Assembly: GCA_963677765.1 (NCBI GenBank)
Contig: OY782392.1
Coordinates: 450,001 to 482,000, forward strand
Origin: Candidatus Saccharimonadota bacterium
Lineage (GTDB): Bacteria > Patescibacteriota > Gracilibacteria > BD1-5 > UBA6164
Reading direction: 5' to 3'
DNA: 32,000 nt
Below the pieces are notes generated by a model, which was given only the letters and a program-made list of their open reading frames with translations, made no database searches and was not told the origin of the DNA. The position numbers and the translations under genes are program-made. Positions 1 to 32,000 of this stretch are shown here, in pieces. Position 1 is the first letter of the stretch. Every line of letters starts with the position of its first letter.

Positions 1-564
1 TAATTTATCTGTAATTAATTTTTGTTTTGGTATATCATCATGATACATTAATTCCAAATAATAGTTATCTAGACCAAAAATATCTTGATATTCTTTTATC
101 CTAGATAATATTTCAGATTCATCTTTTCAAGATAAAATAAAAAAAGGTATCTCTCATGAAATAGGTCATGACAAACAAACAATTTCTAGATCTCATACCT
201 TTTCTTTTAAATCCTTTATGTCTTGAAAAGATATTTTTGGTTTTTTTCAAGCATTTTCTAAAGATGCCTTAGTAGTAAGAGATATTATATTTTTATATCA
301 ATTAAGAGATTTTGCTAATAAAACTAATTTATGATTTATATTTGAATCTATAGAAGATTCTACATAAATCTCTGTACCAAGTATAGGTTTAATACCTGCT
401 CATATTGCTTCTTTGTATAATTCATGACATCAATGTACATTTGAGGTATCTGTTATAGCTATTGCTTGCATTCACATTTCAAGTGCTTTTGCGACATAAT
501 CTTTTGGCTTTGGTAAACCTTCTAATATAGAATAATGAGAATGGTTATGCAAATGTACAAACAT
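1..564 (-). CDS. dnaE: DNA polymerase III alpha subunit, N-terminal PHP domain (partial; continues beyond the window start)
   Basis: Code-25 translation of the minus strand from ATG (complement of 562-564) gives MFVHLHNHSHYSILEGLPKPKDYVAKALEMGMQAIAITDTSNVHGCHELYKEAIGAGIKPILGTEIYVE..., the classic PHP-domain start of DnaE. In-frame TGAs fall on expected Gly positions (LEMG, VHGCHE, GAGIKP). Confidence 0.85.
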
Positions 565-695
565 CAAAAAAAAATTATAAAATAATATATTAAATCTTAG
601 ATTATTCTATTCATTTTTTATAAAATGTCATTATTTTGACTAAAAAAAATATATGTGATAACATTTTATTAATTATAAATTTAATAACAATAAAT

Positions 696-1478
696 ATGTC
701 AGCTGAAAGCCTTAATCAAAACTTTGAACAAAATAAAATTGAAACTAAAGAAAAACATTATCTAGAAGAATGATTTAACGAATTAGGTCAATATGAAGTA
801 CAAAAAGAAGATTGAACTGAAACCTTATACTCTATACTTCCAGAGTTAATAAATAGGAATTTTGAAGTAAAAGATAGAACTTTTTTGAGAAATATGATTT
901 TATCAAATATAGAAGAAATCAACAATATTCAAAAAGGAGATATTATTGAAATAAATCAAATTGATTCTAACTCATATGAATTAAGAGTAAGTGAAGATTT
1001 TTTTGTAATAAATTTACACAATGAAAGCTTTACAAAAATGGATAATGAAAATGATGTAATAAATAATATAAATAAAGAAGAACTTGATCAATATAAATTA
1101 ACAAACGAAGAAATTGAAACTTTAATCAAAGCAATAAATATAGAAACAAATAAAGCAGAAGTTTGATTATTTGCATGACAATTAGATACATATACTATAA
1201 AAGTAGGAAAATTTATAGAATGGAATTTACCAACAAATGCGGAACCTGTAGATTTGATTGTAGCAGTTGATCCAAATAAAGTTATAGAAAAAACAAAAGA
1301 TGTAATGATGTGACAAGATATAGATTCAATAAATGTTAATGATCTAACATTTAGTTGAGATGAAAAAATGAGAGAAGAAACAGCAAAAAAAGTAATACAA
1401 GAATTTAAAGGATTTGTAACTTCACTTATAGAATGAACAGAATATAGAGTTTATAGATCAATATGAGCACTAGATTAA
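696..1478 (+). CDS. Hypothetical acidic cytoplasmic protein (260 aa)
   Basis: ATG 696 to TAA 1476-1478 is open under code 25 and contains several in-frame TGA. The track ORF 885..1166 is an in-frame fragment of it. I recognised no motif. A shared hairpin terminator follows. Confidence 0.6.
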
Positions 1479-1480
1479 AA

Positions 1481-1514
1481 AAAGAAGAAAACTATATGTT
1501 TTCTTCTTTTTTTT
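1481..1514. terminator. Bidirectional rho-independent terminator between two convergent genes
   Basis: Perfect 12-bp stem aaagaagaaaac (1481-1492) / gttttcttcttt (1498-1509) with loop tatat, an A-run before and a T-run after. It overlaps the last codons of lysS. Confidence 0.6.
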
Positions 1515-3090
1515 CTTCAGTATTTAAACTTTTCATAAGTGGAAATAATGTAACATCTCTAAGATTTTCTTGTCATGTTAATAAAGAAAATACTCTTTCA
1601 ATTCACATACCCCATCCAGATTGACATGGCATACCATATTCCATAGCTAAAACGAAATCATCATCTCAACTAGTAGCTTCTTCATCTCATCTTTCAATTG
1701 CTCATGATTGTTCATCAAAGTTTTGAGCCTGAATTCTAGGATCAACTAATTCAGAATAAGCTTTTATAATTTCCCAACCATTCACAACTACTTGAAATTG
1801 CTCAACTATTTCAGGATTAGAATCACTTTGTCTTGCTAATGGCTGCATTGTTTTTGGATAATTATATACAAATGCAGGTCATACAATACTTGGTCTTAAA
1901 ACCTTTTTGTATAAATAATCTATAAGAGTTGGAACTCACATTTTATCCATACCTTCAAAAACTACTCATGCATCTTTGATATCTCAAATCAATTTTTTTT
2001 CATCTCATACCTTATAGTCAGATACATCTATTCAACATGCTTCTTTTACTCAAGCAACATAATCTATTCTTTGCCAAGGAGTTTGAAAATTTACCATTTT
2101 TTCATTTCAATTTTTATCTTTTACCATAACTTCTTTATTTAATTCTGGTATATTATTAAAAACGAAATCAAACATATCTTCAGTAAATTTCATATTATCT
2201 TCAAAATTCCACCATGCTGAATAATGCTCAATAGCAGAAAATTCTTGCATATGAGAAGGGTCACTTCATTCATTTCTAAAATTTCTAGTAAATTCTACTA
2301 CTTTTTCAAATCTACCAACAGTAGCTTTTTTAAGAGCTGTTTCAGGAGAAATTCTTAAATAAAAATCCTCATCAAAATCATTATGATGTGTTATAAAAGG
2401 AGCAGCAGCAGCTCATGATGCAGCATTACCTAATACTGGAGTTTCAATTTCTATAAATTCATTATTATGATAAAAGTCTCTTAATGATTTAATAAATTTA
2501 CTTCTTAATTTAAATCTTGAAAAACTATCTTCATTCATTATCAAATCTAGATATCTTTGTCTATAAATAGTTTCAATATCTTGAACTCAGTGAAATTTTT
2601 CTGGAAGAGGTCTAATAGCTTTAGATAAAATTTGAAATTCATTAACAAAAATTGTTAATTCTCAATGCTTAGTCAAAAATAAATCTCATTTTACTCAAAT
2701 ATAATCTCATACTTGGCAAAATTTTTCAGCTATTTTAAATGATGATTTTTCTTCACCTCATAATTCAATAGAAGTTAAAATTTCTTTTCAAGTATTAAAT
2801 ACTACCTTATCTCTAGAAAAACATAATTGAATATCTCAAGTATTATCTCTTAGTTTTGCAAATAATAATTTTCACATACCCCTACTAGATATAATTCTTC
2901 AAGCTGTTTGAAAAGTGTTTTCACTTCAATTTTCCATCATATCTGATGCTTCTTTTATTGAATTTTCTTGAGATCTAATAAAATCAATATTTTGTTTTCA
3001 TCTATAATTATTAGCATAACAAATAACTCAAGCATTTTTCAAATCTTCAATTTTTTTAATTCTATCTAAACTCTCTTTTGAATAGTCCAT
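1492..3090 (-). CDS. lysS: Lysyl-tRNA synthetase, class II (532 aa)
   Basis: Minus-strand code-25 translation from ATG (comp. 3088-3090) to TAG (comp. 1492-1494); length is divisible by 3. It contains ...[17 protein letters not shown]..., [55 protein letters not shown] and [14 protein letters not shown], which are LysRS class II signature regions. Confidence 0.9.
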
Positions 3091-3286: not shown

Positions 3287-6106
3287 ATGAGAAAAATAAT
3301 TTTCTTTATAATCTGATTTTACTACTCTATAAATAATACATTTGCTAGAGTATTAACAACTAGTTGACAAACCCCTACAACAAAGGAACAAGTAAAAGAA
3401 GAAACTTGATCAATGACAGATTGAACTTTTTTAGATGTTACTGATTGATGACTTTTTTATGATTTAGCATGATTTGCTCTATTAATTATTGCAACAATAA
3501 TAATTCTATTATTTATAAGGAAACTTTTATGACTTATATTTGAATTATACTATGCAAAAAATCTTAGATATCTAAAAGTAACTTTGCCTAGAGCCGATTC
3601 AAAAATGGATAAAGAAAAGGAAACAAAGAAGGATTTCAAGGAAAAAATTTGAATAATGAGTATGTTTTATAAAGCTATTCATAAATTAAGTGAAGCTTGA
3701 TTGCATGACACTCTTTTAAACATAATTTTCTGACATTCAAAAATTTCTTTGGAATTAGTATATGACAAATGACAAGTATACTTTTACATAGTTACATTTA
3801 AAAATTATGTAAATCTTATTAGTCAACATTTAACATCAAATTATAATGATGCTGAAATATTAGTAATAGACCCTAAAGATTGATATGTAGATCTAAAAGA
3901 AAAATGATACAAAATGAGAGCCGCATCTTTATGAAAAGAAAATGATGATGTATATCCAATAAAAGTATTCAAATACCTTGAAGATGATCCAATAAACAAC
4001 TTTACAAATGTTTTTTGAGGATTAGCAAAAGATGATAAAGCAGTTTTTCAATTAATTATAAAACCAGAATCATCTAGATACAACAAAAAAGCATTAAAAG
4101 CAGCAAGATTAGTAGCAAAATGAAAATATAAAAAATGAAAAAAATGATTATTTAGTTTTTTAAGTTTTCTACGGAATCCATTAGTTGCATTGATAGAATG
4201 ACCTGAAGATATGGTTTCAAATAATGCTCCTTGAGCATCAGAATGAGATGCATATAAAATATTTAACCAAGCAGAAACAGAGGCTCAAAAGACAATGTGA
4301 GAAACTGCAGCCCAACCTACTTTTAAGTCATCAATTAGAGTATTGGTATCAAGTAAAAACAAACAAAGTAGTGAAGACTGAGTTCATGCTATAGTAGCCG
4401 CAGCTTCAATGTTTACTGATGAATATAATAATGCATTAGATAATCCTCAAATTCTTGAAGATGCATTTCCTTGGTTTTTTACACCTGTTAGATACTTTGC
4501 ATTCAAAAATAAACTAGTTTGATTTTTACAAAATGTATCTTGGTTTTCGTCAGATGAAATATCTACTTTATATCACTTACCAGATATAAATTACAATAGA
4601 TCATCTATTATAAGCTGGTTAGATTATAAAAAACTTCCTACTCCTCATAATTTAAAAACTCCAAGTGATGCTACAATACTAAAAGAAAAAATTGAAGTTT
4701 GAGTGGACGAAAATGGAAAACCAAAATATGAAGAGATAGATAAACATAGACATTTATGATGATTTCCTGTCTATAAAGATTGAGTATTATTATGATGGAA
4801 TGAATATAGAAATAAAAAAACTCCTATATATTTCAATAGAAAAGATAGAGGTAGACATCATTATATAATATGAAAATCATGAGGTTGAAAATCTGTTTTT
4901 GTATGATATTTAGCAAGACAAGATGTCCGGAATGGTGATTGAGTTTGTGTAATTGATCCACATGGAGATTTAGTAGAAGATGTATTAGCATTTACACCTA
5001 AAGAAAGAGCAAAAGATGTAGTTGTTTTTGATCCTGCTGATTGAGATAGACCAATGTGATTAAATATGCTAGAAGTAATATCTACTGATCCTGATTTAAG
5101 AAAAAGAGAAATGGACAGAGCTGCGATGGATGCAACTGAAATTTTTATAAAAATATTTGGTGATGAGATATTTTGACCAAGAATACAACACTACTTTAGG
5201 AATGGTTGTTTGACATTAATGGAAGATGTCGAAGATGGATGAACTCTTATAGATGTACCAAGATTATTTGTAGACGATGCTTTTATGAAATATAAAGTAT
5301 CAAAAGTAAAAAATCCTGTAGTAAAATCTTTTTGGGATCATGAATATGCAAATACTTGAGAAAGAGAAAAACAAGAAATGATTCCTTACTTCTCTTCTAA
5401 ATTTTGACCATTTATTACTAACACAACTATAAGAAACATTATTTGACAACCTAAATCTGCTTTTAATATTAGACAGATAATGGACAATCAAAAAATACTA
5501 CTTGTTAACCTATCTAAAGGTAAAATTTGAGCACTTAATGCACAATTACTTGGTCTTATATTTGTATCAAAGGTAAATATGGCGGCTATGTCTAGAGCCG
5601 ATATTCCAGAATCTGAAAGAAAAGATTTTTACATGTATGTTGATGAGTTCCAAAACTTTGCAACAGAAACATTTTGAGAAATATTATCGGAAGCCAGAAA
5701 ATATCACTTAGCATTAATAATGGCTCACCAATTTATTGCACAAATTTGATGAAGTTGATCTCAAAAATGAGATAAACCAAGTATAAAAGATGCTGTATTT
5801 GGTAATGCCTGAACAATTATGAGCTTCAAAGTTGGTGCTGATGATGCAGAATATATGGAAAAAGAATATGCTCCTTTATTATCACAACAAGACATTATAA
5901 GTATTGCCAACTTTACAGCATATTGTAAATTAAATATTGATAATGCTACAACTAGACCTTTTGACTTAAAAACTATACGGGATAATAATTATAAAAATCA
6001 ACAAATAGCTGATATTATAAAAGAATATTCTAGAAAAAAATATGGTAGAAAAAAGAAATATGTTGATATGGAAATAGAGGCTAGATTATGAATTGATCCA
6101 AACTAA
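3287..6106 (+). CDS. VirD4/TraG/TraD-family (T4SS coupling-protein-like, FtsK/HerA-type) membrane-anchored P-loop ATPase (939 aa)
   Basis: ATG 3287 to TAA 6104-6106 is open under code 25; track ORF 5819..6091 is its in-frame tail. There are N-terminal hydrophobic segments (FALLIIATIIILLFI). Walker A is RHHYIIGKSGGGKS (4871-4894, with three of four Gly encoded by TGA). Walker B-like FYMYVDEFQNF is followed by ALIMAHQF. Confidence 0.75.
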
Positions 6107-6139
6107 AAGTAAACACTCCAAAAAAGTGTTTACTTTTTT
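6106..6139 (+). terminator. Rho-independent terminator
   Basis: Perfect 11-bp stem aaagtaaacac (6106-6116) / gtgtttacttt (6126-6136) followed by a T-run. Confidence 0.6.
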
Positions 6140-6195
6140 GTTAAATAGTAAAAAATATGTTAAAATATTATCAAATATTAAATAAATAATAATTT

Positions 6196-7335
6196 ATGAA
6201 AAAAATATTAATTTTATTGGCTATAATTTTTAGCTTTGTAAATATAGATATTGCTTTTTGAGAACAAAGTTGTTTTATAGATTGAAATTTTATACAACAT
6301 TGAAAAACAATAACTGCATATGAATCAAGTGTATCTTCAAATTGTCAAAGCACTTCAAGAACATGTAATGATTGAACTTTAAGCTGAAATAGCAATTATA
6401 ATAGTTTAAGTTGTCAAGAGTATAATAATAATGAATTACCAAATTCTAATAATTTAGATATTTGACAAACATCAAATAAAAACTCTACAACAAATGATTA
6501 TTTAAAAGAATTATGAAAAAGTTGAGATTGAGATATAAGAGTATGAAATGAATGAGAAAAATCAATAGTTAGATTCTTATATAACATAGCTAAGGATTTA
6601 AAAACAGTTATATATATAATATCTTGAGTTTATTTCATGATAATAACTATAAAATTAATACTATCTAGCAATACAGAAGAAGAGATATGAAATTTTAAAA
6701 AATGAATTATATGGATAACTATTGGTATCATACTAATGCAAATAGTATTCTTCTTTGTAGAAATATTATATGCAAAAGAAGTTTGAGCTGCATTAGCTGC
6801 AAACTTAGCAAAAAATATAATTGAACCAATAATAAAGATATTAGAAACAGCTGCTTCATTTTTCTTTTTATTAGTTGCTATATATGCATTTTATAGAATA
6901 GTAACTGCTAATTGAGAAGAAGATAAAGTAAAATCATGAAAAATGAGTATAATATATGCTATTATATGATTTATAGTAATAAAATTATCAAAAGATATAG
7001 TATATGCTGCTTATTGAAGAGTAAACTGTAATGAATCTAGTTTTTTATGAGTATTTCAAGTAAATTGAAATAATTGTGTTACAGAGAATCAAATATCAGG
7101 TATAAGTCAAATAATTGTTCAAATAATTAACTGGGCAAATAGTTTTATATGAATTATAATTATCTTGATGATTATATATGCTTGAGTTCAAGTTCTATTC
7201 TCATGAGGTGATGAAGAAAAACTTACAAAAGCTAAAAAATCAATAGTTTATATAGCTATCTGAGTAGCTATACTAGTACTAAATTATTTTATATTAACTT
7301 TCTTCTTAAGACCTGAAGTTTCAATAACTATATAA
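6196..7335 (+). CDS. Secreted/membrane protein with a 4-Cys N-terminal domain and three tandem VirB2/TrbC-pilin-like hairpin modules (379 aa)
   Basis: ATG 6196 to TAA 7333-7335 is open under code 25. Signal peptide MKKILILLAIIFSFVNIDIAFG. Cys-rich stretch SCFIDGNFIQHGKTITAYESSVSSNCQSTSRTCNDGTLSGNSNYNSLSC. Three repeats of TM / short charged loop / TM follow, e.g. YAFYRIVTANGEEDKVKSGKMSIIYAIIG and YAGVQVLFSGGDEEKLTKAKKSIVYIAIG. Confidence 0.65.
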
Positions 7336-7344
7336 TAAAAAAAC

Positions 7345-8265
7345 ATGAATAAAATAAAAAAAATAATAATCTGATTAATCATATGATTGTTTTGATTTTG
7401 TAATATAAGTTATGCAGCAAATATTCAATGATTAACTTGATGAGCAATAGATAGTACATCTAATGGTAATGTTTCTATTCAAATAACATGAACTGATTCT
7501 ACAAGTATATCAAAAACAGTAGAAAATGTATGATTGAATTTATTAACAAAAATAAAATATATATTTTCATGAGTATTATTAATATTTTTGGTATATGCTT
7601 GAGCACAAATGGTAATGTCAATGTGAACAGATGAGGATGCTCTATCAAAATCAAAAAGAACAATATGGTATTCTATGATTTGATTGGTATTTATAAATAT
7701 GCCTTGAACTTTATATGAAGCATTAAAATGAGACAAAACAAGTGTAGCATGATGAATATGAAGTTCTTGGGCAAATGAAATTAACTCTACAACTACTAAT
7801 CTATTTATAAATCTTGATATATTTGCAGTAACTCTAAACGATTATATAATTAAGTTTTTACAAATAATATTAGTTTCTGTTGCTATACTAGTTATAATAA
7901 TTGCTTGATTAAAAATAATTACATCTAGATGAAGAGAAGAACAAGTAACAGAATCAAAAAATAAAATTTTATGGTCAATTGTATGACTTATATTCATATG
8001 ATTTATTGAAGTATGGCAAAAATTTGCATATGGATGAGAAATTAGTGATTGACAAGATATATTTGAAACTATTGCTAACCTGCTTTTATTCTTGGCATGA
8101 CCAATAGTTATATTCTTCTTAACTATGGCAGGTTATTATTATATAACTGCTAATTGAGATGAAGATAAGGTAAAAAAATGAAAAAATATAGTAGTAAATG
8201 TACTATTAGCTACTGCAATACTACTTATATCATACATATTTTTAAATGATTTAATTACACTATAA
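7345..8265 (+). CDS. Membrane protein with three tandem VirB2/TrbC-pilin-like hairpin modules (306 aa)
   Basis: ATG 7345 to TAA 8263-8265 is open under code 25. Signal-like N-terminus MNKIKKIIIGLIIGLFGFCNISYA. The modules are VYAGAQMVMSMGTDEDALSKSKRTIWYSMIGLVF, IIIAGLKIITSRGREEQVTESKNKILWSIVGLIF and TMAGYYYITANGDEDKVKKGKNIVVNVLLATAIL. Confidence 0.65.
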
Positions 8266-8720
8266 TGAAAAAAAAGATATTAATAATAGCAATGCTATTA
8301 GCAGCTATATTTTGATTAAATATAAATAATACGTTTGCTAACTCATGAACAACAAATGAAAAAGTAACAATAGTAATAGTTAGTGAAAAAGTTCCATGAG
8401 CAAAATGTAAAGGTATCGATAAAGCATGAAATGAAACTAAGGATAACGAAAGTATAATATCTTGGAAATGTGAAGTATGACAATGAGCAAGTACAATTGT
8501 ATGAATGCTATGAGATATAATAAGATATTTTACATATCTGGCATGATTAGTATGAGTATTATTTATAGTATATAATGGTATATTATATAGTATGTGATGA
8601 GCTGATCAATCATTAAAAGAAGAATCTAAAAAAAGAATTATATGAACTCTTATATGATTAATTGTATTACTATTAAGTGGACCAATACTACAATTAGTTG
8701 CACCATGGATATATAAATAA
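8265..8720 (+). CDS. VirB2/TrbC-family pilin-like protein, single module (151 aa)
   Basis: The ATG at 8265 overlaps the upstream TAA (TAATG). Signal peptide MKKKILIIAMLLAAIFGLNINNTFA. C-terminal hairpin LAGLVGVLFIVYNGILYSMGGADQSLKEESKKRIIGTLIGLIVLLLSGP. TAA at 8718-8720. Confidence 0.65.
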
Positions 8721-12880: not shown

Positions 12881-12910
12881 AAAAAGACTAGATTAAATCT
12901 AGTCTTTTTT
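12881..12910. terminator. Bidirectional terminator between convergent genes
   Basis: Perfect 13-bp stem aaaaagactagat (12881-12893), loop taa, then atctagtcttttt (12897-12909). Confidence 0.6.
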
Positions 12911-13334
12911 ATAAATCTGAAAAGTCAGCTGGTAACTCATCGATTGTATTGATATTAGTAGGATAAGTAGAAGTAGTTCAAAATATATTATTTCAAATAT
13001 CTTCTATTTTTTCAAAAATTCTTTTTGGTTCAGCATATTTTTCTACATCTAAACCTAACAATCTTCATAAGATAGGAAAAAGGAAAATAGTTAATATAGT
13101 AACTACAATACCAATAACAGCATATCTTATTGTATTAATAGCTGGTTTAATTTTATCATCCTTTCCTCATGAAAGTATTAGAAGAAGACCTCACCATAAT
13201 ATAAAAACAATAGAAAATATTCAAGCAACTAAAACAAATAATGAGATTATCAATAATACAAAATCTCAAAATTCCATATTAGATGAAAATAAAGATCATC
13301 CTGTTTCTATTGCATGTACAGTATCTACTATCAT
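12909..13334 (-). CDS. VirB2/TrbC-like pilin-type small membrane protein, single module (141 aa)
   Basis: Minus strand from ATG (comp. 13332-13334) to TAA (comp. 12909-12911). Sequence FVLLIISLFVLVAGIFSIVFILWGGLLLILSGGKDDKIKPAINTIRYAVIGIVVTILTIFLF shows the same TM-loop-TM pattern as the proteins at 6196-8720. Confidence 0.55.
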
Positions 13335-17938: not shown

Positions 17939-18511
17939 ATGCATAAAGCAATCTCTACCAACAAAGCAAGAAAAGAACTTGCAGGTATTTTTGGAATTAA
18001 GAACTGGAAAAAAGTAAGTAAAAAAGCTGTTGAAAAATATTTCAACCCTACTGAATTTTTCGGAGAAACACAATATTGGGAAAAGAAAAATAATTTTGTA
18101 TTATTAATTGAAAAATCTTTAAAAAATTTCAAATTAAAACTTACAAAAAATGAAGCAATAGAAACATTAAAAGAACTAGGCTTAACATCAAACGTAGATT
18201 TAAATCTATACTTTGATAAATCTGGTGAAAATTTTTTCACAAAAAAATATGATTTTGATAATCTATTTGAATTAAGAACTTTTGTCAAAGAAAGAATTAA
18301 GTCAAAAGTAAAAAAATACTATGGAAAAAGTTTTGAAGAAATAATTCCACAAGAACAAAAAAGATTAGAAATATACAAAAAAGCTTGGGAATTAAGAAAA
18401 TTAAATGGATCTAAGCTTGCAAACAATACTGTTGTTGAGTTTCTTATAAAAGAAATTGGTCACTGGAGTCCTAAAAATAAAGGACATAATTTATGCAAAA
18501 GAGCCTCATAA
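17939..18511 (+). CDS. Lys-rich basic 190-aa protein of unknown function, with no TGA codon (possible HTH-like segments)
   Basis: The ORF reads identically under codes 11 and 25. All 9 Gly codons are GGN and all 4 Trp codons are TGG. It has its own promoter, SD and terminator. Segments ARKELAGIFGIKNWKKV and SKLANNTVVEFLIKEIG look HTH-like by eye only. Confidence 0.65.
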   Translation: MHKAISTNKARKELAGIFGIKNWKKVSKKAVEKYFNPTEFFGETQYWEKKNNFVLLIEKSLKNFKLKLTKNEAIETLKELGLTSNVDLNLYFDKSGENFFTKKYDFDNLFELRTFVKERIKSKVKKYYGKSFEEIIPQEQKRLEIYKKAWELRKLNGSKLANNTVVEFLIKEIGHWSPKNKGHNLCKRAS

Positions 18512-18626: not shown

Positions 18627-21359
18627 ATGAGAAATAATCCTGAATTTAATAGTTTTCAAGAAGCAAGAGAAAAAGATTTAAGTTTAAGAGAGATAAAAGA
18701 ATCAATAAAAAAACTTTCTATAGAACAAAGACAACAATTGTCGCATGAGATAAATAGACAAATAATATCAGAACTTCATAAATGAATGGAGGTTAAAAGA
18801 TGAGATGAATTAAATTTTTTGAAAGCTTTAACTCTAGAATGAAATAGAATAACATGGACAAGTCAAAGAGAAGCTGATACAATTCATCCATGAGACATAA
18901 TAAAAATAGAATGAGATAATATATTGAAAAATTGAAATTCTATATGAAAAGTTGAATGATTCAAAATAGAAGAAAATCCTCAAAGTCAAGAAAACACAAC
19001 AATAGAAGCAAATAATCAATCTAATAACAATCAAGAAACAGAAAGTCAATCTCAATCAAGCCAAGAAACAAATTCATCAGAAAATTTAACAGTACAACAA
19101 CAAGAACAAACTGTAAATCAAGAAAATTGAACTAACCCAACTATAACTGAAACAATAACTCAATGAGCAACTGATGTAAGAGATGATTTTCAAGAAATTT
19201 TTGATAATCTAACTTGAGCTAATCTTTCTGAAGAAGAAAGACTAGATGTAAGAGCATATTCTCAAGATTGAAAATATTATATAATCTGAGAGAACTGAGA
19301 ACCTGTATTATATAGTTCATTATGATTAAATGAAAACTTTAGAGAATCTATAGAAACCATATGAGAATCAAATAAAAAAATATGAAATTTTGAGCTTATA
19401 ATTTCTGCTCTTGTAAACTCAGAAGAAGATAAATACAAAAATATAAAAGAAGAATTTAATAATAAAATACAAGACTTAGACATATCATCTATGGATTCTA
19501 TTAACAGTCTATTATTATGGATAGATGAAAAAAATAATGAAATAACTGATTGAGAACCAGTAAACTTAAACGATAAACTAGAAGTTATAAGCTTTATAAG
19601 AGACTTAGATAGTAATTGAGCAAATAATTTACTAGTTAATGAATTATTTAATTTAACAAATATAAGTGAAGAAGATTTATATGCTTTTATAGACAACCCA
19701 TCTAATAATGCTGAAAATATTAGAACTTTATTATGAGAAGAAAAATATAGAGAAGTAAGAGAAAAAATAAGAGAGAAAAAAACTCAAGCAGATAATCATT
19801 TTGATGACAATAAAGACTTATTTATAAAACAGCTTATAGAAAAAAATTGAATGGATATTAATCAAGCCACTGAATTAGTTGAACAACAATATAAACAGTC
19901 TATAATAGATAGTTTTGTATGAAGTTACGCTAGAAATGAAATATTGCTTTCTTATGTTGAATGATTATCAGAAACATGAAACTGGCATTGATATAAATGA
20001 GAAAACAAATTAATGGAAATGTTTTCAGATATACAATGAATAGGTTATTTAGATGCTAGAGATAGTACTTTGGCTTCAATTGCATTTTGGTCAAAAGAAG
20101 GTTTTTATATATTAGGGACTCAAATAATAGCAATCGCAGCTTGAGCTGTAACTATGTGAGCTGGTTATGTATGAGTTAATGCTGCTGTTTGGTGAACAAG
20201 ATGATATAGATGAATAAGAGCATTACAAACGGCTAGTAACTTTGCAAATTCTTGAACTAAAATGGCAAGATTAGCACAAGTATGAAGATGGTGAGCTATG
20301 AGTACTGTATGATGAGCTAGCTTTTATACTTGATATGCTTGAGTTCAATCTATAGCAGAATGAGAAAATATGTATTCATGGGAAGGTTTATGAGAGTCTA
20401 TATTGTACACATGAGCATTTAGAGCTTTATCATCTATACCATGATTAAGAATAGACCCTAGCAAACCACTAAGTCAACAAAAATTAAAACTAGCAATTGC
20501 TACACCTTTGGATGCAATAGCATTCTCTTCTATATGATTAACTTTGGAATGAGTAATATTAGAACCAGGTGAATGGAATGCAGAACTAATAATGCAAGCA
20601 ATAGTTATGGCTGCAATATTTAGAACATGATGAGCTACTCTACAAAGAATGAAATTTAAAACAAATTGAAACAATGTAGAAATACTAGAATGAGCATCTA
20701 GCACTCCAATAAGATTCTTCAGACATAGTCAAACATGAAAAACATATACTAGAACTCTAGACTGAAAATTCCGTAATGAAAATTGAAGAGTAGTAAGTAA
20801 TTTAAAAGTAGATAATTTAGTTGAAGTTCAAGTAAATGAACAAGTAAGAAGATCAACTATGGATAGAATAAGAACAAGTTCTAGAGAATCTATTTCAAAT
20901 GCTTGAGAAAGAATTAGATGATCTCTATGAAAAATAAATGAAAGTGAATTGATATCATGAGCAGTTCAATGATTAAATCATAGAAGAAAAGTTTTATTTG
21001 AAAAAGCATTAAATTGATTAAAAAATAAATGAATAAATACTGTTACATGAACCAAAAATTTCTTGGCAAATTTAACATATAGAGGTTTTTGAGAATGATG
21101 ACCTGCTTTTAGAAATTGGGTTTTTTATACATGATGAACTATATATAGTTCATGGGAAGAATTAAACACACTATTTGACGCTTTAAATAATAAAGATGAC
21201 ACAATATGGAAATTAGAGCATATTGATGAAGTATGAGAAATAATACTTAACTTAACTTTATTTAAAAGTCTATGATTAATCCGTGCATCAGCTTATACAT
21301 GGGCAATAGAAAAACTTTTCTGAGATGCAGAAACTTTAGAACAAGAAACTACTGAATAA
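18627..21359 (+). CDS. Orphan large protein (910 aa): charged/coiled-coil N-terminal half, Q/N/S/E-rich low-complexity tract, Gly-rich multi-TM core, basic C-terminal region
   Basis: ATG 18627 to TAA 21357-21359 is open under code 25 with dozens of in-frame TGA and no TAA/TAG (I checked it codon by codon). The low-complexity tract lies at about 18969-19126. The hydrophobic Gly-rich core is FYILGTQIIAIAAGAVTMGAGYVGVNAAVWG...GRWGAMSTVGGASFYTGYAGV...ELIMQAIVMAAIF. Four track ORFs on the minus strand here are antisense artefacts. Confidence 0.7.
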
Positions 21360-21432: not shown

Positions 21433-24162
21433 ATGCAACTAAGTAATAGACCTAGTAATAACCCTAATTCAAATACAGAAGAAATAAAATTATGAAACTT
21501 GGAGCAAAATACTTTTACTCAAGAAGAAATAGAAGAATACAAAGAAGTATTATTAAATAGAGAACAAGCTGAGAGAGTTAGACAATGAAGAATAACAATA
21601 GAAGAAATATCTAGACTAGCAAGAGAGCAACTTAAATTAAATATGGAATCTGAAAGATCTGTTGAACAAAGTCAATTAAGATGAAGAGAAATAAATAGAG
21701 AATGAAACGAAAGCCAAGAAATTGATAGAGAAGATGCTGATAATACATTATCTAGCCTTAATGAAACCGTTCAAAATGCATGAGAACAAGTAAGAGAAAA
21801 AGCTAGTGAAATAAAAGAAAATATAGCAAAAGTAGAATGAGCTTCTGGTATTTTAAACTGGTTAGAACAAGCTAAAGAGAAATGATGAATAATGTGATTT
21901 ATAGCAAGTATAATTCTTTGAATAGCTGGGGTTTTTTGATACAAAAAAGAAGTAAATGAACAAATTCAATCTGTAAGAGAAACTGTAGAGAATGGCTTAA
22001 ATCAAGAACAAATAAGCCAAACAAAACAAACTACAAAAGATACTATAAATCAATCTCTATGAGAATATATAACAAATGAAAATAGAGAAAGATTAAATAG
22101 CGCTATAGATTGATTATCAGAAGAACAAATAAGAAGATTATATCACTCTATAGAGTCATGAGAATTTTGAATAGATGATATAGAAGATATAGCTCCAAGT
22201 ATATTTTTAGAAGTATTAAACGAAGCCCAATTAGAACAAATAAAACAAAATATAGAAACAACTATTATAGAAAATCTATCTAAAACAATAAAAGAGGAAT
22301 ACTGAATTGATGTAGAGTTAAATCCAGAGAAAAAAACTGAATTAATAAACTTAGTAAGAGAGAATCTAAGATTAAGTGATGATAGAATAATGGAAATAAA
22401 AGAAATAGTAAAAAAAGAAGAGTTCAGATACAAAGATTTATCTGAAATATGAGGTGAAACAATTATAAATGGTTTAAGCATAATGTTATGACTTATATCT
22501 AGATGAATAGTTCCTCTTTCTAACTTTACTTTTAGTTTTGTAGAAGCTGGTTGAAAAATAATAGCTATTTGAGCTTGAGCATTATGAATAAACGAAAATA
22601 TAACATTTGAAAATTTTCATAATCAACTTGAAAAAATGAGTGATTCAGAAAGAGCAATGTTTGTATGAATACTTTACAGAAAATGATGATTATTCCTATG
22701 ATTGGTATCAAGTATGATGGAGCATGCTAGTAAATTTACAATATCATCAATTACTAATACTACAGTATCATGAATAGAACTAGCTTGAACATCTTTAACT
22801 AACAACTTTTCTGCACAAGCAGAAAATATTGATAAAATAGCAAGAACAATTAATCCTTCCAATTTGACTGACCATAAATGAGTTTTAAATGAAGCAATAA
22901 GAAACTTAGATAAAGTTAGAGAAAATTATAAAATGATGGATCTAATACAACAAGTGGATTGAAACTTAGATGATGCATCTAAATTATCACAACTAAAATG
23001 ACTTTTATCTACAAATAATATAGATATTCCTAACTGAACTAATAGTTTCGATGATTTAATAAGAGCTCTTTGAGAAAAAAACAATATAGTTACATCTCTA
23101 AATAATAGATGATCTATATCATCTAGCCTAGGTTTTTGAGCAAGTGCCGACTTAAATAGATTAAATAGACAACTAGAAAGAATATCTAGTTCTCAAAAAA
23201 GAATGTTTAATCCAAACTTTTTATTGAATTGATTTTCTAGAATGAGAGAAGCTATAAATATAGCAGAAGTTTCTAGAATGTGAGACAGATTAGCTTTTCA
23301 TTTTGATAGTCCAAGTCAAGCAAGAGATTGATTAAGAAGATTAAATACACTAGCTAATAGATTTCCAGAATTATTAAAATGAGCAATAGATAAAGCTCCA
23401 ATAATAATGGTTGCATGATTGGCTGCAAACGATGATAAACCATTTTTTGAATCTCTAAAAGATCAATTACCTACACTTATACCTATTGTATGACCTATAT
23501 TGATACTTAGTGACTCATGATGGTCATGGTCAGATTGATTTCCTAAGCCTATTGATCCATTAAATGTATGAATATGAGCTGCCTTATTAACTATAGATTG
23601 AGCAATATTATGAAAAGAGATTTACACTTGATGAGCTAGAGCATGAGTATGATATATATTAAAGCCTTTTAGAGATATATACTCTATGTGAAGATGAACT
23701 TTAGATATGTGATATTCTGTTTCTAGAACTATAGCAAGATGAAATCCTTCTGCTATGTGAAATATAATAAAAGAATGAGCTAGAAGAGTAAAAAATATAC
23801 CTGGTTGATCTAGAGTAAGAGCATTAGCATTAATTTGAGCTGTTTGATATGTTTGAGTAAACTATTTATTAGAAGGTTGAGAACAAATAGAATGAATAGA
23901 AGAATTAATGGTAAATTGAAAAGTAGATAGAGAAAGAGTAAGTCAAGTTGCTTGAGAACTTAGCGATTGACAAAAAGAAGAAGCATTAAAAGCTATAATT
24001 CAAGAAGAATGATTAGAATGATTAGAAATAAAAGTAATAGCAAATAGAATTTCTATAGTATCAAATAACCCTAGTATAAAAGCTGATTGGTTTATTGATA
24101 GTGAATTATTTGAATTATTTAAACTAGATTCAGACTATAGATTTGTTTATGAACAAGCATAA
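21433..24162 (+). CDS. Orphan large protein (909 aa): coiled-coil/charged regions interspersed with Gly-rich TM segments; probable distant paralogue of the 910-aa neighbour
   Basis: ATG 21433 to TAA 24160-24162 is open under code 25 (checked codon by codon). TM-like segments are GGIMGFIASIILGIAGVFGY, GGKIIAIGAGALGI, APIIMVAGLAAN, LPTLIPIVGPILILS and RALALIGAVGYVGVNYLL. It shares the hexapeptide GYVGVN (23845-23862) with the upstream protein (20163-20180). Confidence 0.7.
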
Positions 24163-24266: not shown

Positions 24267-25316
24267 ATGAAACTATCAGATTTTGATTACATTTTACCAG
24301 AAGAATTAATAGCTCAAACTCCTATAGAACCAAGAGATCATTCTAGATTATTAAAAATAAATCCCAAAGAAAAAAAAATAGAAGAATCAAAGTTTTATGA
24401 AATAATAAATAATTTATGAGAAAATGATGTTTTAGTATTGAATAAAACAAAGGTTATTAATGCAAGATTACACTGAAAAATAGAAAACTCAGAAAAAATA
24501 GCTGAAGTTTTTCTTCATAAACAAATAGATGAGAAATCATGGGACTGCCTTGTATTTCCATGAAAAAAGTTAAAACCATGAAAAGAAATATATTTTTATT
24601 TAGAAAATGAAAAAAAGCCAGTATTAAAAGCAATAGTTAAAGAAGTTTCTCAAAACTGAAGAATAATAGAATTTGATAAATCATGAATAGAATTTTTAGA
24701 AATAATAGATTCTCTTTGAGAAATACCACTTCCTCCATATATAAAAGAAAAACTTGAAAATTCTCAAAGATATCAAACGGTATGGAGTGAGATAGAATGA
24801 AGTGTAGCAGCTCCTACAGCTAGCTTGCATTTTACAAATGAATTAATAGAAAAAATAAAAAACAAATGAGTTAAAATAGAAAAAGTATTATTACATGTAT
24901 GATTATGAACTTTTATGCCAGTAAAAACTGATAATATACTAGAACATAATATGCATAGCGAATACATAGAACTAGAAAAAGAAGTTTCTCAAAGACTAAA
25001 TAAATATAAAAAAGAATGAAAAAGAATAATAGCTGTATGAACTACCTCTATAAGAGTATTAGAAAGTTTTAGCAATGAAAATTGAGAAATTGGTTATGGA
25101 GAAAAAGATACAGATATTTTTATATACCCATGATATAAATGGAAGTTTGTTGATGCTATAATAACAAATTTTCATTTACCAAAATCTACTTTATTGATGC
25201 TAGTATCAAGCTTTGCATGAAAAAATTTTATATTAGAAGCTTATAATTTTGCTATAAAAAATAAATTCAGATTTTTTTCTTTTTGAGATGCTATGTTTAT
25301 AGAAAAAAAAGAATAA
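24267..25316 (+). CDS. queA: S-adenosylmethionine:tRNA ribosyltransferase-isomerase (349 aa)
   Basis: [31 protein letters not shown]...[10 protein letters not shown]...[23 protein letters not shown]...LLHVGLGTFMPV...[13 protein letters not shown]...[20 protein letters not shown]...RFFSFGDAMFI: full-length QueA signatures under code 25. Confidence 0.92.
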
Positions 25317-25379: not shown

Positions 25380-26504
25380 ATGAAAAATACCAGCTCTTCT
25401 GATTTAGAAAATCTTATAAAAAATGATGACGTATTCAAAATAAATGAAAGAACAATAAAACAATTTTCTCGCATATCAAAAATATCTCAAATGGTAAGTT
25501 TAGCTTCTTGAGAAGAAGTAGAATGATTAGATGAAAGAAACTTAGATAAATCAAAGCTTAAATCTCCAGAAGTAATAGAAACAGCCAATATAATAATAAG
25601 AAAAATAGAAGAAGTTTTATGAGTAAATGCTTCTGAAATATGATGATCTAGCATAGAAAAAGTTGCTATAAAAGTATGAGATAAATTAATATCATCATGA
25701 AATGTAGAAGATTTTATAATATGAAACTATGTAAAAAGAATAGCATACCAAGTATCAAATATTCATCTAAGATATCAAAGATATACTAAACATATAGAAA
25801 ATAGAGAATTAAAAATAAAAAATAGAATAGATAATCTAACTTGATTATTAACAAAACAATCAATTAATAACTATATAGATTATATAGTAGAAAGAAAATC
25901 TCTATGATCTGATAATTGAAATTATTGAGTTATATTAATGGATATTGATTATTTCAAAGTATTAAATGATAATTTTTGACATGTAGCATGAGATATTGTA
26001 CTAGAGGAAATATCAAATATATTCAAAAAACTATTTAGAGAAACAGATAAAGTTGCTAGATGGTGATGAGAAGAATTTTTAGTAATTATGAAATGATGAG
26101 ACACAAAAAGCTATACAAAAAAAATAAACAGAGTAAGAGAATATATAGATAATAATCTTTTAAATATAGTAAATTCAAGAATAATAAGAGAACAACAAAT
26201 AAAACCAATAACACTAAAACACATAACAATAAGTGCTTGAATAACTATGTTGGCTAATGATGACTGTTTAACAAGTGTAACAAAAAGAGCTGATGAAGCT
26301 CTATATAGTTCTAAATGAAGTTGAAGAAATTCAGTAACACTTATAAGTAAATATAATTCAGATAAAGAAGAAGATTGTGAAACATACTGCCCAACATGAT
26401 GCCAATGAAACGAGGAAATAAAAGAAAGACTTGTAAAAAAAAATCCAAATCTACATGAATTAATAAACTCTAGATGAGAAAAAAATAATAGCACCTATCA
26501 ATAG
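25380..26504 (+). CDS. GGDEF-domain diguanylate cyclase with an uncharacterised N-terminal domain (374 aa)
   Basis: LTGLLTKQSINNYIDY...VILMDIDYFKVLNDNFGHVAGDIVLEEI...FRETDKVARWGGEEFLVIM...ITISAGIT...RADEALYSSKGSGRNSV. The active site is GGEEF (26064-26078, both Gly encoded by TGA). The I-site-like RETD lies exactly 5 residues upstream. The C-terminal tail carries CETYCPTGC. Confidence 0.85.
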
Positions 26505-26520: not shown

Positions 26521-27531
26521 TTAAGAAATATCGACTATTTCTATATCAAATTTAAGTGTTTTTCCTGCTAATTTATGATTTGTATCAATAACTACATTTT
26601 CATCAGTAACATCAATTATAGTTAATGGTCAAAATTGAGTTGGTAAAACATTTCAAGCTTTTAATTCAATACCATTATCTTCAAAAGTTTTAAGATCAAG
26701 TCTAGGAACTACTTGTCTATTTTCTTCACTATATTCTCAATATGCTTCTGATGGAGCTAAAGTTATAGATTTTTTTTCTCATATAGACATTCCTAATACA
26801 GCTTTATCAAAACCAGGAATCATTTGACCTGATCAAGCTACAAACTCTAAAGCATCTCATCTATCATAACTAGAGTCAAATTTTTCTCAATCCTCAAAAG
26901 TTCAAGTATAGTGAACTTTTACTATTGAATCTATTCATATTTTCATAGATTTTTTAGCCTCTTTTTTTGAATCAAGAAAACTTTCATAAGCTTTTAAAGC
27001 AGCTTCTTTATCAAAAACATAATCCTTAAAACTTGTTCAGTTATATTCTTTTATTTTTACTGAGATAATCTTTACTTCTTTTTCTGGTCTATCACTAGAA
27101 TCAGTTTTTACTTTTGATAATTTATCAACATTATCAACTCAATCAACTACTTCTCAAAAAACAGAATGTTTATCATCTAAGTAATTATTATCTGCAACAT
27201 TTATAAAAAATTGACTTCAATTTGTGTTTGGTCAAGCATTTGCCATAGATATAGTATATTTGAAGTTTCTTAATTCAGGATGAAATTCATCAACAAATTT
27301 TTCTCAATAAATACTAGTTCCTCACATTCATGTACCATCTGGATCTCATCATTGAATCATAAATCATTTTATTATTCTATGAAAAATAACTCAATCATAA
27401 TATCAACTAGTAGCTAAACCTATAAAATTATTCACAGTAATAGGAGCTAAATCTTTTTCTAACAATATATTTATAACTCAAGAATTAGTTTTAACTTCAG
27501 CTATAACATCTCATTTTTCATATTTATACAT
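26521..27531 (-). CDS. Dual-family peptidyl-prolyl isomerase: N-terminal cyclophilin fused to C-terminal FKBP (SlyD-like) domain (336 aa)
   Basis: Minus strand under code 25. Cyclophilin part: [48 protein letters not shown]...ISMANAGPNTNGSQFFI...HSVFGEVVDG. FKBP part: [51 protein letters not shown]...HKLAGKTLKFDIEIVDIS. Confidence 0.85.
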
Positions 27532-27555: not shown

Positions 27556-28044
27556 TTATTTAGATATTTCCATTAACTCTATATCAAAATTTAGAGTTTC
27601 TCATGCTAAAGGATGATTCATATCAACAGTAACATCATCTCATGATATTCATACAACTTCAAAATTACCATACATTGTTGGTAATATAGCTCATGTTTGT
27701 ATAACTATACCATTTTCTTCAAAAGAAGATAATTCTTCTTTTTTAATAACATCGTAATTATCCTCAGTTCTCTCACCATAAGCTTCTTCTGGTGGAAGAC
27801 TTATTGATTTTTTTTCTCAAATAGCCATTCATATAACAGCCGCATCAAATCAAGCAATCATTTCTCATGCTCAAGCAGTAAATTCTAAAGGCTCTCCTCT
27901 ATCATAACTAGAGTCAAATTGTTCACCATCTGTTAGAGTTCATTTATAATGTACTTTTACTATATCTCAGTTTTCTACAACATCAACTGTAGAACAAGAA
28001 GCTATAAATATAGCTAAAAAAGATAGTAATAATGCTTTTTTCAT
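27556..28044 (-). CDS. Lipoprotein FKBP-type peptidyl-prolyl isomerase (SlyD-like, 162 aa)
   Basis: MKKALLLSFLAIFIASCS (lipobox IASC), then [51 protein letters not shown]...HPLAGETLNFDIELMEISK. It is a paralogue of the FKBP half of the upstream fusion. Confidence 0.85.
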
Positions 28045-28062
28045 AATATATATTATTAGGTT

Positions 28063-31000
28063 TTAAATTTTTGCTTTTAATTTTATTTTTCTTTTTCAAG
28101 AACTTCAATTAAAAATCAACAGTAAGTATTCTACAAATTTTTCATCATGTGCAAAGTTTTTTATAGAACTTCTTAATCTAGTAGGACTTACAACTACAAA
28201 ATTTGTATCTCTATCCATATCTAAAAATTTCCTAAGATCTGCAACCTCAATATCTAAATCAAAATCTATTTGATAGTTTATACCTATTTTCTTTATAGAA
28301 CTAATTTTATATTGACTAGATAATATTTTAAGTCTTAATAAGTTAAATAAATTTAAAGTCTCTTTTGCTAGAGTATTATTTAATTCTTCAAAATCTGATA
28401 TAAGATTATTCAAATCTTCAAGAGTTCTAATACTTTCGATTTCTCTATAAAAGTTTATTTTATCTAATTCTCAAGAAAAGTATTCATCAGATATATAGGA
28501 TTCAATATTTAAATCAATAGTTGTATTTATTTTTTTTGTTTTTATTTCATCTTCTCAGATATAGATATTTTGTTCGTTTTTTAATTGCTCAATTTTGTCT
28601 TCTAGCATTTCCAAAAATAGACTAACTCAAACTTCAACAGAACTTCAAGACTGTCTTATTCATAAAATATCTCATCATCACCTTATTTCTAAATCTTTGA
28701 CAGCTAATTCAAATCAAGCTCAAAGATGACTATAATCAACTATTGTTTTTAGTCTTTTTGCAGCATCTTCCTTTATTTTGTCTTTTCTAAATAATAAATA
28801 ACAATATCAATTATTTGCTCATCTACCTACTCTTCATCTAAGCTGATGAATTTGGCTAATTCAAAAATTCATAGCATCATTTATAAAAATAGTATTTACA
28901 TCTCTAAAATCTATTCAGTTTTCAATAACTGTTGTAGCTAATAGTATGTCATATTTTTTTTGTTTGAAGTCAATTATTCTTCTTTCTAAAAGATCACCTC
29001 ATAATTGTCAATGAGCTATAACAACTTTTTTTCAAGGTAGTAGTTTTTCTAAATAAGAAGCAAATCAAGATATTGTTTCAACTCTATTGTGTATAAAAAA
29101 TACTTGTCATCATCTAGAGAACTCTCTTTTACATGCCTCTATTATTAACTTATCATCTAGAGAAGAAACTATTGTTTGAACTGGTTGTTTTCAAACTGGA
29201 GCAGTTGTCAACATAGACACTTGTTTTAATCAATTCAAAGCCATATTTAAACTTCTTGGTATAGGTGTAGCAGACATAGATAATATATCAATATTACCCT
29301 TAAATCATTTTATTTTTTCTTTATCTTTTACTCAAAACTTATGTTCTTCATCTATAACAAGTAATCATAAATCCTTGAATTCAACATCTTGACTAAGCAA
29401 CCTATGTGTACCAATTATCAAATCTATTTTTCACTCCGCTAATTTTTTTAGAGTTGATTTTATAACAGAAGGCTTTTCAAATCTAGTAACAACTTCTATA
29501 TTAAAAGGGAAATCATTAAACCTTTCACGAGCTTTTTCAAAATGCTCATAAGCCAATACAACCAATGGTGAAATTAAAGCAGCTTGTTTTCAGTTTATAA
29601 GTGACTTATATATGGCTGCAAAAGCTACTTCTGTTTTTCAAAATCATACATCTCAACTAAGAAGCCTATCCATAGGGTTTTCTGACTCCATATCTTTGTA
29701 TATTTCATTTATAACATTATACTGATCTGGTGTATAAGTGTACTCAAAACTATTAAAAAATTCAGCTTCAAGTTCTGGTTTTGATTTGAAGCTATGTCAT
29801 ATTTCAAGCTTTCTTTTTGCAAATATATCTAAAAGTTCTCATGCTATTTGTTCGACATCTTCTGACACTTTTTTCAATTTTTTAGCCCAATCTTTTGTAG
29901 ACAATCATGTCAATTTTGGATTTTCTACTCATACATATTTTGATAGCCTATATACCTCAGTTATAGGAACAAAGAGCTTGTCATCATTTTTATACTCTAT
30001 TGTCAAATATTCTTTTTTTATCAAAGCTCAATTTTTTCAAGAAGGAAATTCTTTTGTTATAATTTCCTTAAAAACTCATATTCAATGATCTATATGTACA
30101 ACATAATCTCATGATTTTATTTGCATTAACAAATCCATATTTTCACTAATACTTCTTTTTACTCTTTTTTTGATAAAGATTCTAGAAATATTGTCATCAC
30201 ATATAACAAATATACTTTTAGATTTAAAACTTTTTAAATTATTTAGATTAGACTCAAAAACAATTACATCATCTAAGTTATTTAAATCTAAAAAGTTATT
30301 AATAGTTTTTTTATTTTTTGTAAATATAAATTTTTTTATATTTTTGTCTTCTAATTTCAACTTTAAATCATCTAGATTTTGAATAAGCAAATCACTATAT
30401 CATAAATCTATTGAGTTTTCATGATTTCACAATGATGAAAAAACTATATAATTATCTAATCATGAATATATATCATCAAAAGAAGCATAAAAATCTATAT
30501 TGTCAATAAGAGTAAAAATATTATTTGAAGATTTATATTTATCCAGAAAATAATTATTAGAGTTTCTAGTAAATTCTAAATCGTGTAAAGATTTATTAAA
30601 TCAAAAAACAAAATAGTCAAGATTCTTATCTCAATATATTATTTGATCTATTTCATTATCCCAAAAACTTATTTTTAATAATTGTCAAGTTTTGTCTGTA
30701 TAAGTTAAAGTATCTCACATTATAAAAAATGTATATGGATTTTGACTGTCTGAAAATTTTATATTTAGTTCATTTAACTTTTTACTAAGTTCATTTATTT
30801 CTATTTGTTGTCACTTAGAAATCTTAAAAATATTATTATATTCAAAATTAGATATATTCTCTGTTTCTAGATTAAAAATTTCTTGAGTAGCTATATAATT
30901 AGATATATTGTTATAAAAAACATTAACAAAATCTATAAGATTATCTAGATCATAAAGCTTTAGTCATAAAAAAGATGATATCTTTATATAATTGTTAACT

Positions 31001-31137
31001 TGTTTAGAGTTTTCTACTACAACTAAAAAACTCTTATCAATAGACAAATAATCTTTTGATAAAAGTAACTTATTAAAGTTGTTTGAAAGTCATGTGTAAA
31101 TATTATTTTTTTCTAGATTTTTTAAAATATCAATCAC
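28063..31137 (-). CDS. mfd: Transcription-repair coupling factor (about 1024 aa; start codon uncertain, GTG at comp. 31135-31137 or TTG at comp. 31159-31161)
   Basis: Minus strand under code 25: GDYVVHIDHGIGVF, PMDRLLSGDVGFGKTEVA (29632-29655), LLVIDEEHKFGV, LSMSATPIPRSL, FFIHNRVETI, QLRGRVGRG, GGGDILGIRQSG. Track ORFs 28105..28413 and 30109..30390 are in-frame fragments. There is no in-frame ATG near the 5' end. Confidence 0.9.
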
Positions 31138-31224
31138 TATATTTCATCTTATATTATACAAATTGTTGATAAATTATATAAAAAAATTAAAATAAGAAAA
31201 ATTATTATTTTAGTTAATTTAAAA

Positions 31225-31785
31225 ATGAATTTATTTATAGATACTATATCAAAAAATTCAACAATGATATTATTTGATGATGCTAGAAATATAGTAAAAG
31301 AAAAACAATTTGAGATAAAATGAAATGAATCTAGTTTATTAATACCAAATATAGACAACTTTTTAAAAGAAAACAATATAGAGTATTTTGATTTGGAAAA
31401 TATAGTACTTGTAAATGGGCCTTGAAGCTTTACATGAGTTAGAACAAGTGTTTTAGCCGTTAATACTATAAACTATATAACTAAAAAAGATTTAACATGA
31501 ATGAGTTATTTTGATCTATATAGAAACTACCCTATAATAAAAACAAGCTCTAAAAGAGACTGCTTTATAAAGTTTTCTAAAGAAGATGAGATAAAAATAA
31601 TAAATAATGAAGAAATAATACAAACATTAAAGCAAAAAAATATTGATAAAATATATTGAGATGCTTTATTTGATTGAATACAAACTATTGAAAAAATAGA
31701 TTTTTCTGCTATAATAAAGGATATAAACTTGCAAAAAAATAAAAAACTAGAAGCAATGTATATAAAAAAACCTAATATTTGTTAA
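31225..31785 (+). CDS. tsaB: tRNA threonylcarbamoyladenosine (t6A) biosynthesis protein TsaB/YeaZ (186 aa)
   Basis: MNLFIDTISKNSTMILFDD...ESSLLIPNIDNFLKENNIEYFDLENIVLVNGPGSFTGVRTSVLAVNTINYI. This matches the TsaB pattern (IDTS..., HSexLlP, GPGSFTGlRig). It is divergent from mfd. Confidence 0.75.
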
Positions 31786-31794
31786 TAAAACAAA

Positions 31795-32000
31795 ATGCTA
31801 AAACTGGAAAATATGAAAGAATGAGAAAAAATTCTCATGGTTATTAGAAGACACTGGTTCATATATGTAATGTTATGACTATATTTTTTATGAGCATTAA
31901 TTTTTAGTATAATATTATACTTTTTATTATGAATTAATACATTAACAAATATAGCAAATATAATAATATGGATAATATTTTCACTATTTTTATATTTAGA
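31795..32000 (+). CDS. PH-domain (bPH_2/YdbT-like) membrane protein, 5' part; runs off the window end
   Basis: MLKLENMKEGEKILMVIRRHWFIYVMLGLYFLGALIFSIILYF... The GEKIL..RRHW motif followed by two TM helices is typical of the YdbS/YdbT family. Confidence 0.45.

Follow-up and report, generated by a model that had tools for sequence, protein, structure and literature searches.

Evidence that UGA is read as glycine, and probably CGG as tryptophan, in a genome window of Gracilibacteria

INTRODUCTION

How should a stretch of DNA be translated when in-frame TGA codons occur in almost every one of its genes? The question is raised by a stretch of 32,000 nucleotides from contig OY782392.1 (assembly GCA_963677765.1, positions 450,001 to 482,000 of the forward strand), which as a whole we call the window and number from its first nucleotide. 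A previous reading of the same letters, referred to below as the original prediction, proposed that the entire window is written with UGA as a glycine codon, that tryptophan is always encoded by TGG and that automated annotation under the standard code would yield a graveyard of fragments. The explanation that we consider very probable as a whole is that the organism belongs to the Gracilibacteria, decodes UGA as glycine, retains UAA and UAG as its only stop codons and most likely reads CGG as tryptophan. Taken by itself, the decoding of UGA as glycine is close to certain.

Translation table 25, the Candidate Division SR1 and Gracilibacteria code, goes back to Campbell et al. (2013) and Rinke et al. 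(2013), as cited in PMC8629427, where Gracilibacteria and Absconditabacteria are both listed as UGA-to-Gly lineages. The gTranslate preprint (bioRxiv 10.64898/2026.05.24.727570) applies table 25 to GTDB class JAEDAM01, orders BD1-5 and Absconditabacterales. Since code 25 is already established for this lineage, our core finding is not new: the reading of UGA as glycine is correct and was known. A further change was proposed by the Codetta survey (Shulgina & Eddy 2021, PMC8629427), in which both CGA and CGG are predicted to encode tryptophan in Absconditabacteria and the CGG change is said to be one that "may extend to" some Gracilibacteria; the same survey called CGG as arginine in some Gracilibacteria.

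RESULTS

TGA as a sense codon restores the genes of the window

The window (positions 1-32000) has a G+C content of 25%. Under table 11, open reading frames (ORFs) of at least 80 amino acids (aa) cover 18% of it; 11 ORFs reach 100 aa, and the longest measures 259 aa. Treating TGA as sense raises the coverage to 90%, compared with 31% when TAG and 57% when TAA is the codon reassigned. The gene set obtained with code 25 comprises 27 protein genes and five tRNA genes (Met, Glu, Leu-UAA, Ala and Asp) and occupies 91-92% of the window, so that the proposal that about 90% of it would resolve into genes holds.

These genes contain 517 in-frame TGA codons, or 5.3% of all codons, spread over 25 of the 27 protein genes. 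All 26 complete genes stop at TAA (23) or TAG (3), as had been anticipated. The original prediction overestimated what survives under the standard code, which it put at three to four intact genes: just two are free of TGA, namely ribosomal protein S10 (105 aa, 14380-14697, minus strand), which is intact under any code, and an orphan protein of 190 aa (17939-18511, plus strand), which is intact under table 11.

TGA codons fall on glycine positions of standard-code homologues

To determine which amino acid TGA encodes, five conserved proteins were aligned with solved structures from standard-code organisms, every TGA having been masked as X beforehand to avoid presupposing a residue. In Mfd (1024 aa, 28063-31137, minus strand, 52 TGA codons), glycine occupies 25 of the 40 TGA columns that lie within the alignment with E. 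coli Mfd. Lysyl-tRNA synthetase (LysRS; 532 aa, 1492-3090, minus strand) has 28 TGA codons, 14 of which face glycine in E. coli LysS (14-15 when LysS and 9jkl are both considered), and the corresponding figure for QueA (349 aa, 24267-25316, plus strand, 17 TGA codons) is 11 of 17 against T. maritima QueA. A cyclophilin-FKBP fusion protein (336 aa, 26521-27531, minus strand, 24 TGA codons) shows glycine at 11 of the 13 TGA columns that align with S. pombe Ppi1. Finally, only three of the 38 glycine codons of EF-Tu (396 aa, 14797-15987, minus strand) are TGA, and all three align with invariant glycines of solved EF-Tu structures (3/3 against 7bbn). Tryptophan stands at none of these positions. 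When the five proteins are pooled, columns aligned to a residue give glycine in 64 of 96 cases and tryptophan in 0 of 96 (binomial p ~1e-46 against a background of 8%). The alignments to homologues, LysRS and QueA included, bear out the idea that TGA marks glycine in unrelated conserved proteins.

The four motifs in which in-frame TGA had been reported at glycines were all recovered at the positions given for them. The EF-Tu motif T-V-T-[TGA]-V-E-M-F has its TGA at 15208-15210 on the minus strand (TCA on the plus strand), which is exactly where the table-11 ORF of EF-Tu terminates. In a TraG/VirD4/DUF87-like secretion ATPase (939 aa, 3287-6106, plus strand, 50 TGA codons), the Walker A motif G-K-S-G-G-G-K-S is written TGA-AAA-TCA-TGA-GGT-TGA-AAA-TCT (4871-4894). 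The active site W-G-G-E-E-F of a GGDEF diguanylate cyclase (374 aa, 25380-26504, plus strand), in which all 24 glycine codons are TGA, corresponds to TGG-TGA-TGA-GAA-GAA-TTT (26061-26078), and helicase motif I of Mfd, G-D-V-G-F-G-K-T, to the complement of 29632-29655.

The secretion ATPase also allowed a codon-by-codon test against 144 diverse homologues sharing 32-49% identity with it. Glycine fills 58.5% of the 2,682 cells in TGA columns; as a positive control, arginine fills 61.8% of the cells in AGA columns of the same set. Expressed as log-odds, TGA scores +49 bits as glycine and -51 bits as the runner-up residue, and no well-sampled codon departs from its standard meaning. UGG, as tryptophan, is among them: W scores +21 bits in TGG columns and occupies residue 683 in 137 of the 144 homologues.

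TGA codons are conserved in close relatives

Related contigs were sought through S10, which is identical in 20 public contigs. Six of these match the window at 84-95% DNA identity, with no exact copy among them. In codon alignments with these relatives, whose counts pool overlapping loci and are not independent events, TGA of the window is kept as TGA in 366 of 413 aligned codons. The 47 that have changed became GGN in 27 cases and TGG in none; conversely, where relatives have TGA opposite another codon of the window (n = 34), that codon is GGN in 25 cases. A pairing of TGA with TGG, TAA or TAG was never observed, and TGG itself is kept in 40 of 41 aligned codons. The conserved in-frame TGA codons are seen across independent assemblies from NCBI, ENA, JGI and Logan.

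TGA use varies with gene function

With 517 of 673 occurrences (77%), TGA is the main glycine codon of the window, and glycine amounts to 6.9% of residues when it is counted. Four genes of the translation apparatus depart from this usage: TGA accounts for 3 of 38 glycine codons in EF-Tu, 0 of 4 in S10, 1 of 4 in S16 (13648-13887) and 2 of 5 in L28 (14150-14347), that is 6 of 51 when pooled, whereas the other genes use it for 82% of theirs (Fisher p = 6e-25). EF-Tu and the ribosomal protein genes prefer GGT and strongly avoid TGA, which would suggest that highly expressed genes are under selection to use GGT.

The 190-aa orphan likewise has no TGA among its nine glycine codons, an outcome whose chance is about 2e-7 when the 82% TGA share of the other genes is taken as the expectation. 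It is an insertion relative to the related locus L001 and lies between the gene of an FtsX-like protein and that of a 910-aa protein. No match was found in Pfam or PHROG, and the whole protein collection holds a single homologue, at 73% identity, in which G is kept at the conserved glycine positions. The gene could be highly expressed or of recent acquisition.

The window belongs to a lineage with a known UGA reassignment

Lineage was assessed from proteins with a named source among the best 120 matches of Mfd and the best 120 of the ATPase, about 10-15 per list. All named homologues (52-79% identity) come from Candidatus Gracilibacteria except one labelled Altimarinota, the current NCBI name of the same phylum (taxid 363464). 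Judging from these sequences, the organism is a member of the Gracilibacteria (BD1-5, NCBI "Candidatus Altimarinota"), in agreement with the expectation that table 25 would fit a Gracilibacteria- or SR1-type lineage.

The window shares with table 25 the reading of UGA as glycine, UAA and UAG as stops, UGG as tryptophan, the Gracilibacteria/BD1-5 affiliation and a small genome of low G+C. It differs in two respects: UGA is no minor extra codon here, and CGG is probably not an arginine codon. On the latter point the window resembles the extended Absconditabacteria code inferred by Codetta (UGA as glycine plus CGA and CGG as tryptophan; PMC8629427). In both, CGG is a rarity, with 3 occurrences per 10,000 codons here and <7 per 10,000 in PMC8629427, and is located at tryptophan or aromatic positions, and AGA is the dominant arginine codon. 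Unlike that code, however, the window genes do not use CGA, and the organism is a Gracilibacterium rather than an Absconditabacterium.

CGG is probably a tryptophan codon

AGA makes up 93% of the arginine codons of the window (316 codons). CGG occurs three times and CGA in none of the 27 genes. All three CGG codons are located in the secretion ATPase gene, on the plus strand, and the same concentration is seen across the six genomes compared at DNA level (the window and relatives L002 and L022-L025), where this gene holds 17 of 18 alignable CGG codons.

At residue 296 (4172-4174), L022 and L023 have TGG where the window has CGG, L024 and L025 share its CGG, and 120 Gracilibacteria homologues carry W (68), Y (33), R (12), F (6) or S (1). 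At residue 898 (5978-5980), TGG is found in L002, L022, L024 and L025, and the 120 homologues have W in 110 cases and R in 10. At residue 548 (4928-4930), CGG is retained at nucleotide level in all six genomes, the window and the five relatives whose DNA was read; here the homologues show R in 98 cases, W in 22 and K in none. Every R that we examined at these three residues in relatives corresponds to a CGG codon in the DNA. Over the six sites with an alignable CGG in the window and its five relatives, the partners are CGG, TGG and TAT/TAC only, and AGA, AGG or CGT is never found opposite CGG.

Could CGG still be arginine, as table 25 has it, with the alternation of R and W at three sites being a true amino-acid polymorphism? 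We regard this as unlikely, even though it draws some support from the small number of CGG codons in the window, from the Codetta calls of CGG as arginine in some Gracilibacteria (PMC8629427) and from residue 548, which is variable in distant standard-code homologues and includes R and K there. CGG never faces AGA, even though nearly all arginine codons are AGA. Substitution patterns disagree as well: in relatives translated with table 25, the three CGG columns contain W (31), R (13) and Y/F (4) but no K, whereas in 33 AGA columns of the same relatives K is the commonest substitute (34 cells) and W is absent from all 525 cells. Residue 296 is furthermore an aromatic W/Y/F position, residue 898 is W in the great majority of homologues, and one relative with TGG opposite the CGG at 5978, L002, has 93% identical DNA. 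The distant standard-code ATPase homologues, which settle the meaning of TGA, were set aside as a test of CGG, the relevant columns being unconserved outside the lineage.

On this codon-level comparison we consider it likely that CGG is read as tryptophan. The assertion that tryptophan is always TGG is then probably wrong, and strict use of table 25 would still mistranslate three residues of the window. With slightly less assurance, we propose that this Gracilibacteria lineage has a code described by no NCBI table, with UGA as glycine, CGG as tryptophan and CGA unused, and with CGG almost confined to the gene of the type IV secretion system (T4SS)-like ATPase, where all six genomes keep it at residue 548 in spite of TGG being an alternative.

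Public annotation mostly follows table 4

The code most often applied to these contigs is neither table 11 nor table 25. Among the best 120 homologues of each protein in a collection of 5.8 billion clusters, W stands at TGA columns, the mark of a table-4 translation, in 102 for Mfd and 104 for the ATPase. The best Mfd and ATPase matches (P0001 and P0121), which come from a single contig in NCBI and ENA, are identical to the window proteins at all unmasked positions, with W at TGA and R at CGG. For EF-Tu and QueA of this genome, a collection of 15 billion proteins contains the table-4 versions and not the table-25 versions. According to the gTranslate preprint (bioRxiv 10.64898/2026.05.24.727570), such translations stem from a coding-density heuristic in CheckM, GTDB-Tk and other tools, which tells table 11 apart from "UGA recoded" genomes and then applies table 4 to the latter. 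The predicted graveyard of fragments holds under table 11 and does not describe practice, where public calls mostly use table 4 and return intact ORFs with tryptophan in place of glycine at TGA.

That UGA might truly be tryptophan, as it is in Mycoplasma and certain endosymbionts of insects, is a reading to which we give hardly any credence. Table 4 (Mycoplasmatales and others) has in common with the window a sense UGA, low G+C, the same ORF boundaries as table 25 and an expected loss of release factor 2, and it has prevailing usage in the databases on its side. The residue, however, is glycine and not tryptophan, by the solved-structure alignments as well as by the ATPase profile. In relatives TGA and TGG do not interchange and GGN is the commonest replacement, and TGA encodes glycines of Walker A, the GGDEF site and helicase motif I. 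Composition disagrees too: table 4 would imply 5.9% tryptophan, of which TGG alone contributes 0.55% of residues, and leave 1.6% glycine. Retaining the standard code and attributing the in-frame TGA codons to pseudogenisation, sequencing errors, selenocysteine or programmed read-through has nothing in its favour beyond their bare presence and is negligible as an explanation, given that they occur by the hundreds in 25 of 27 genes, at a frequency far too high for selenocysteine or read-through, that they are conserved in independent assemblies and concentrated at glycine positions, and that gene lengths match those of homologues.

Candidate tRNAs and a proposed decoding mechanism

In the mechanism that we propose for UGA as glycine, established knowledge of the lineage suggests that a tRNA-Gly with anticodon UCA would read UGA, and that release factor 2 would have been lost, leaving RF1 to terminate at UAA and UAG, the sole stops. 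CGG would presumably be read by a tRNA with anticodon CCG and tryptophan identity. Hanke et al. (2014) make no statement on the UGA tRNA or on release factors.

The expected UGA-decoding tRNA-Gly has anticodon UCA, G1:C72, C2:G71, G3:C70 and U73. A pattern scan of genome contigs for a Gly-type tRNA(UCA) returned 15 matches, all on contigs that lack the signature of a sense TGA and none from BD1-5. They were rejected as chance matches or as glyT-like tRNAs whose anticodon is UCA or whose anticodon loop is shortened. A looser scan of metagenome contigs gave 120 matches, including at least four distinct convincing Gly-type tRNA(UCA) genes on low-G+C contigs with sense TGA (L130, L118, L108/L121 and L046), none of them linked to this genome. 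The one on L130 (1549-1622, minus strand) has G1-C2-G3, U73 and anticodon UCA, as expected for the UGA-decoding type; its contig measures 2.4 kb, has 25% G+C, rises from 0.24 to 0.93 in ORF coverage when TGA is sense, and resembles the window in composition.

The rejected matches include glyT-like tRNAs with anticodon UCA in standard-code genomes: L011 (596-666), L012 (2860-2933), L014 (507-580) and L017 (153-226), the hosts being Streptococcus sp. LQJ-218 and metagenome-assembled genomes of Thalassotalea, Patescibacteria and Alphaproteobacteria. In L012 and L017 the tRNA(UCA) adjoins tRNA-Tyr and occupies a glyT-like slot, the order in L012 being Thr-Tyr-Gly-Thr. Either natural opal suppression or an error of assembly could explain such tRNAs. 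In several further matches the anticodon loop is one base short.

Gene content of the window

Pfam assignments were obtained for a DnaE PHP domain, LysRS, the TraG/VirD4/DUF87-like ATPase, four T4SS_pilin proteins, a CHASE2 cyclase, KhpA, S16, L28, S10, EF-Tu, the FtsX-like protein, QueA, the GGDEF protein, the cyclophilin-FKBP fusion, Mfd and a TsaB-like protein. A separate 162-aa protein (27556-28044) is labelled FKBP by resemblance only. Mfd starts at a GTG (31137); the first ATG would give a protein of 885 aa, and the 139 N-terminal residues upstream of this ATG are conserved in relatives.

The ATPase gene opens a T4SS-like cluster (3287-8720), in which a DUF8128/TraG-VirD4/DUF87 ATPase is followed by three T4SS_pilin proteins of 379, 306 and 151 aa. 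A fourth pilin, of 141 aa, lies nearby at 12909-13334. The cluster is conserved and syntenic in L002, L022, L023 and L025. Downstream of the orphan gene, two adjacent plus-strand genes encode proteins of 910 aa (18627-21359) and 909 aa (21433-24162) with 69 TGA codons each and no Pfam match. Each contains one or two hydrophobic segments and a C-terminal half rich in Gly, and the two are not detectable as paralogues of each other. Their L001 orthologues are 56-59% identical, against 74-100% for neighbouring genes.

DISCUSSION

Several points weigh against the combined reading of UGA as glycine and CGG as tryptophan. The counts obtained from relatives are not phylogenetically independent. The CGG evidence amounts to three codons, all from a single gene of the window, and to six sites once relatives are included, and the three positions, being unconserved in distant standard-code homologues, receive no information from them. 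In addition, neither the window nor some 120 kb of related loci yielded a tRNA with anticodon UCA or CCG. The reading of UGA as glycine, and not as tryptophan or stop, is backed by four independent lines: the masked alignments, the exchange of TGA and GGN between close relatives, amino-acid composition and lineage.

For any other reading of this window the practical value of the code is high, though its novelty is low: all other findings in the window have to be read with TGA as glycine and probably CGG as tryptophan. Under table 11 the proteins are broken into fragments; under table 4 they carry unnoticed errors at about 5% of residues, among them catalytic glycines. Most of the public entries sampled for this lineage carry tryptophan where the cell makes glycine, errors of a kind that weaken searches for homologues, the building of profiles and the prediction of structures.

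For CGG, a sense-codon reassignment that has so far rested on computational prediction now gains independent support at the level of codons. Rare CGG codons might limit translation of the ATPase gene, in which they are concentrated. If CGG is indeed tryptophan, the pattern in these genomes would be a snapshot of an early stage of sense-codon reassignment.

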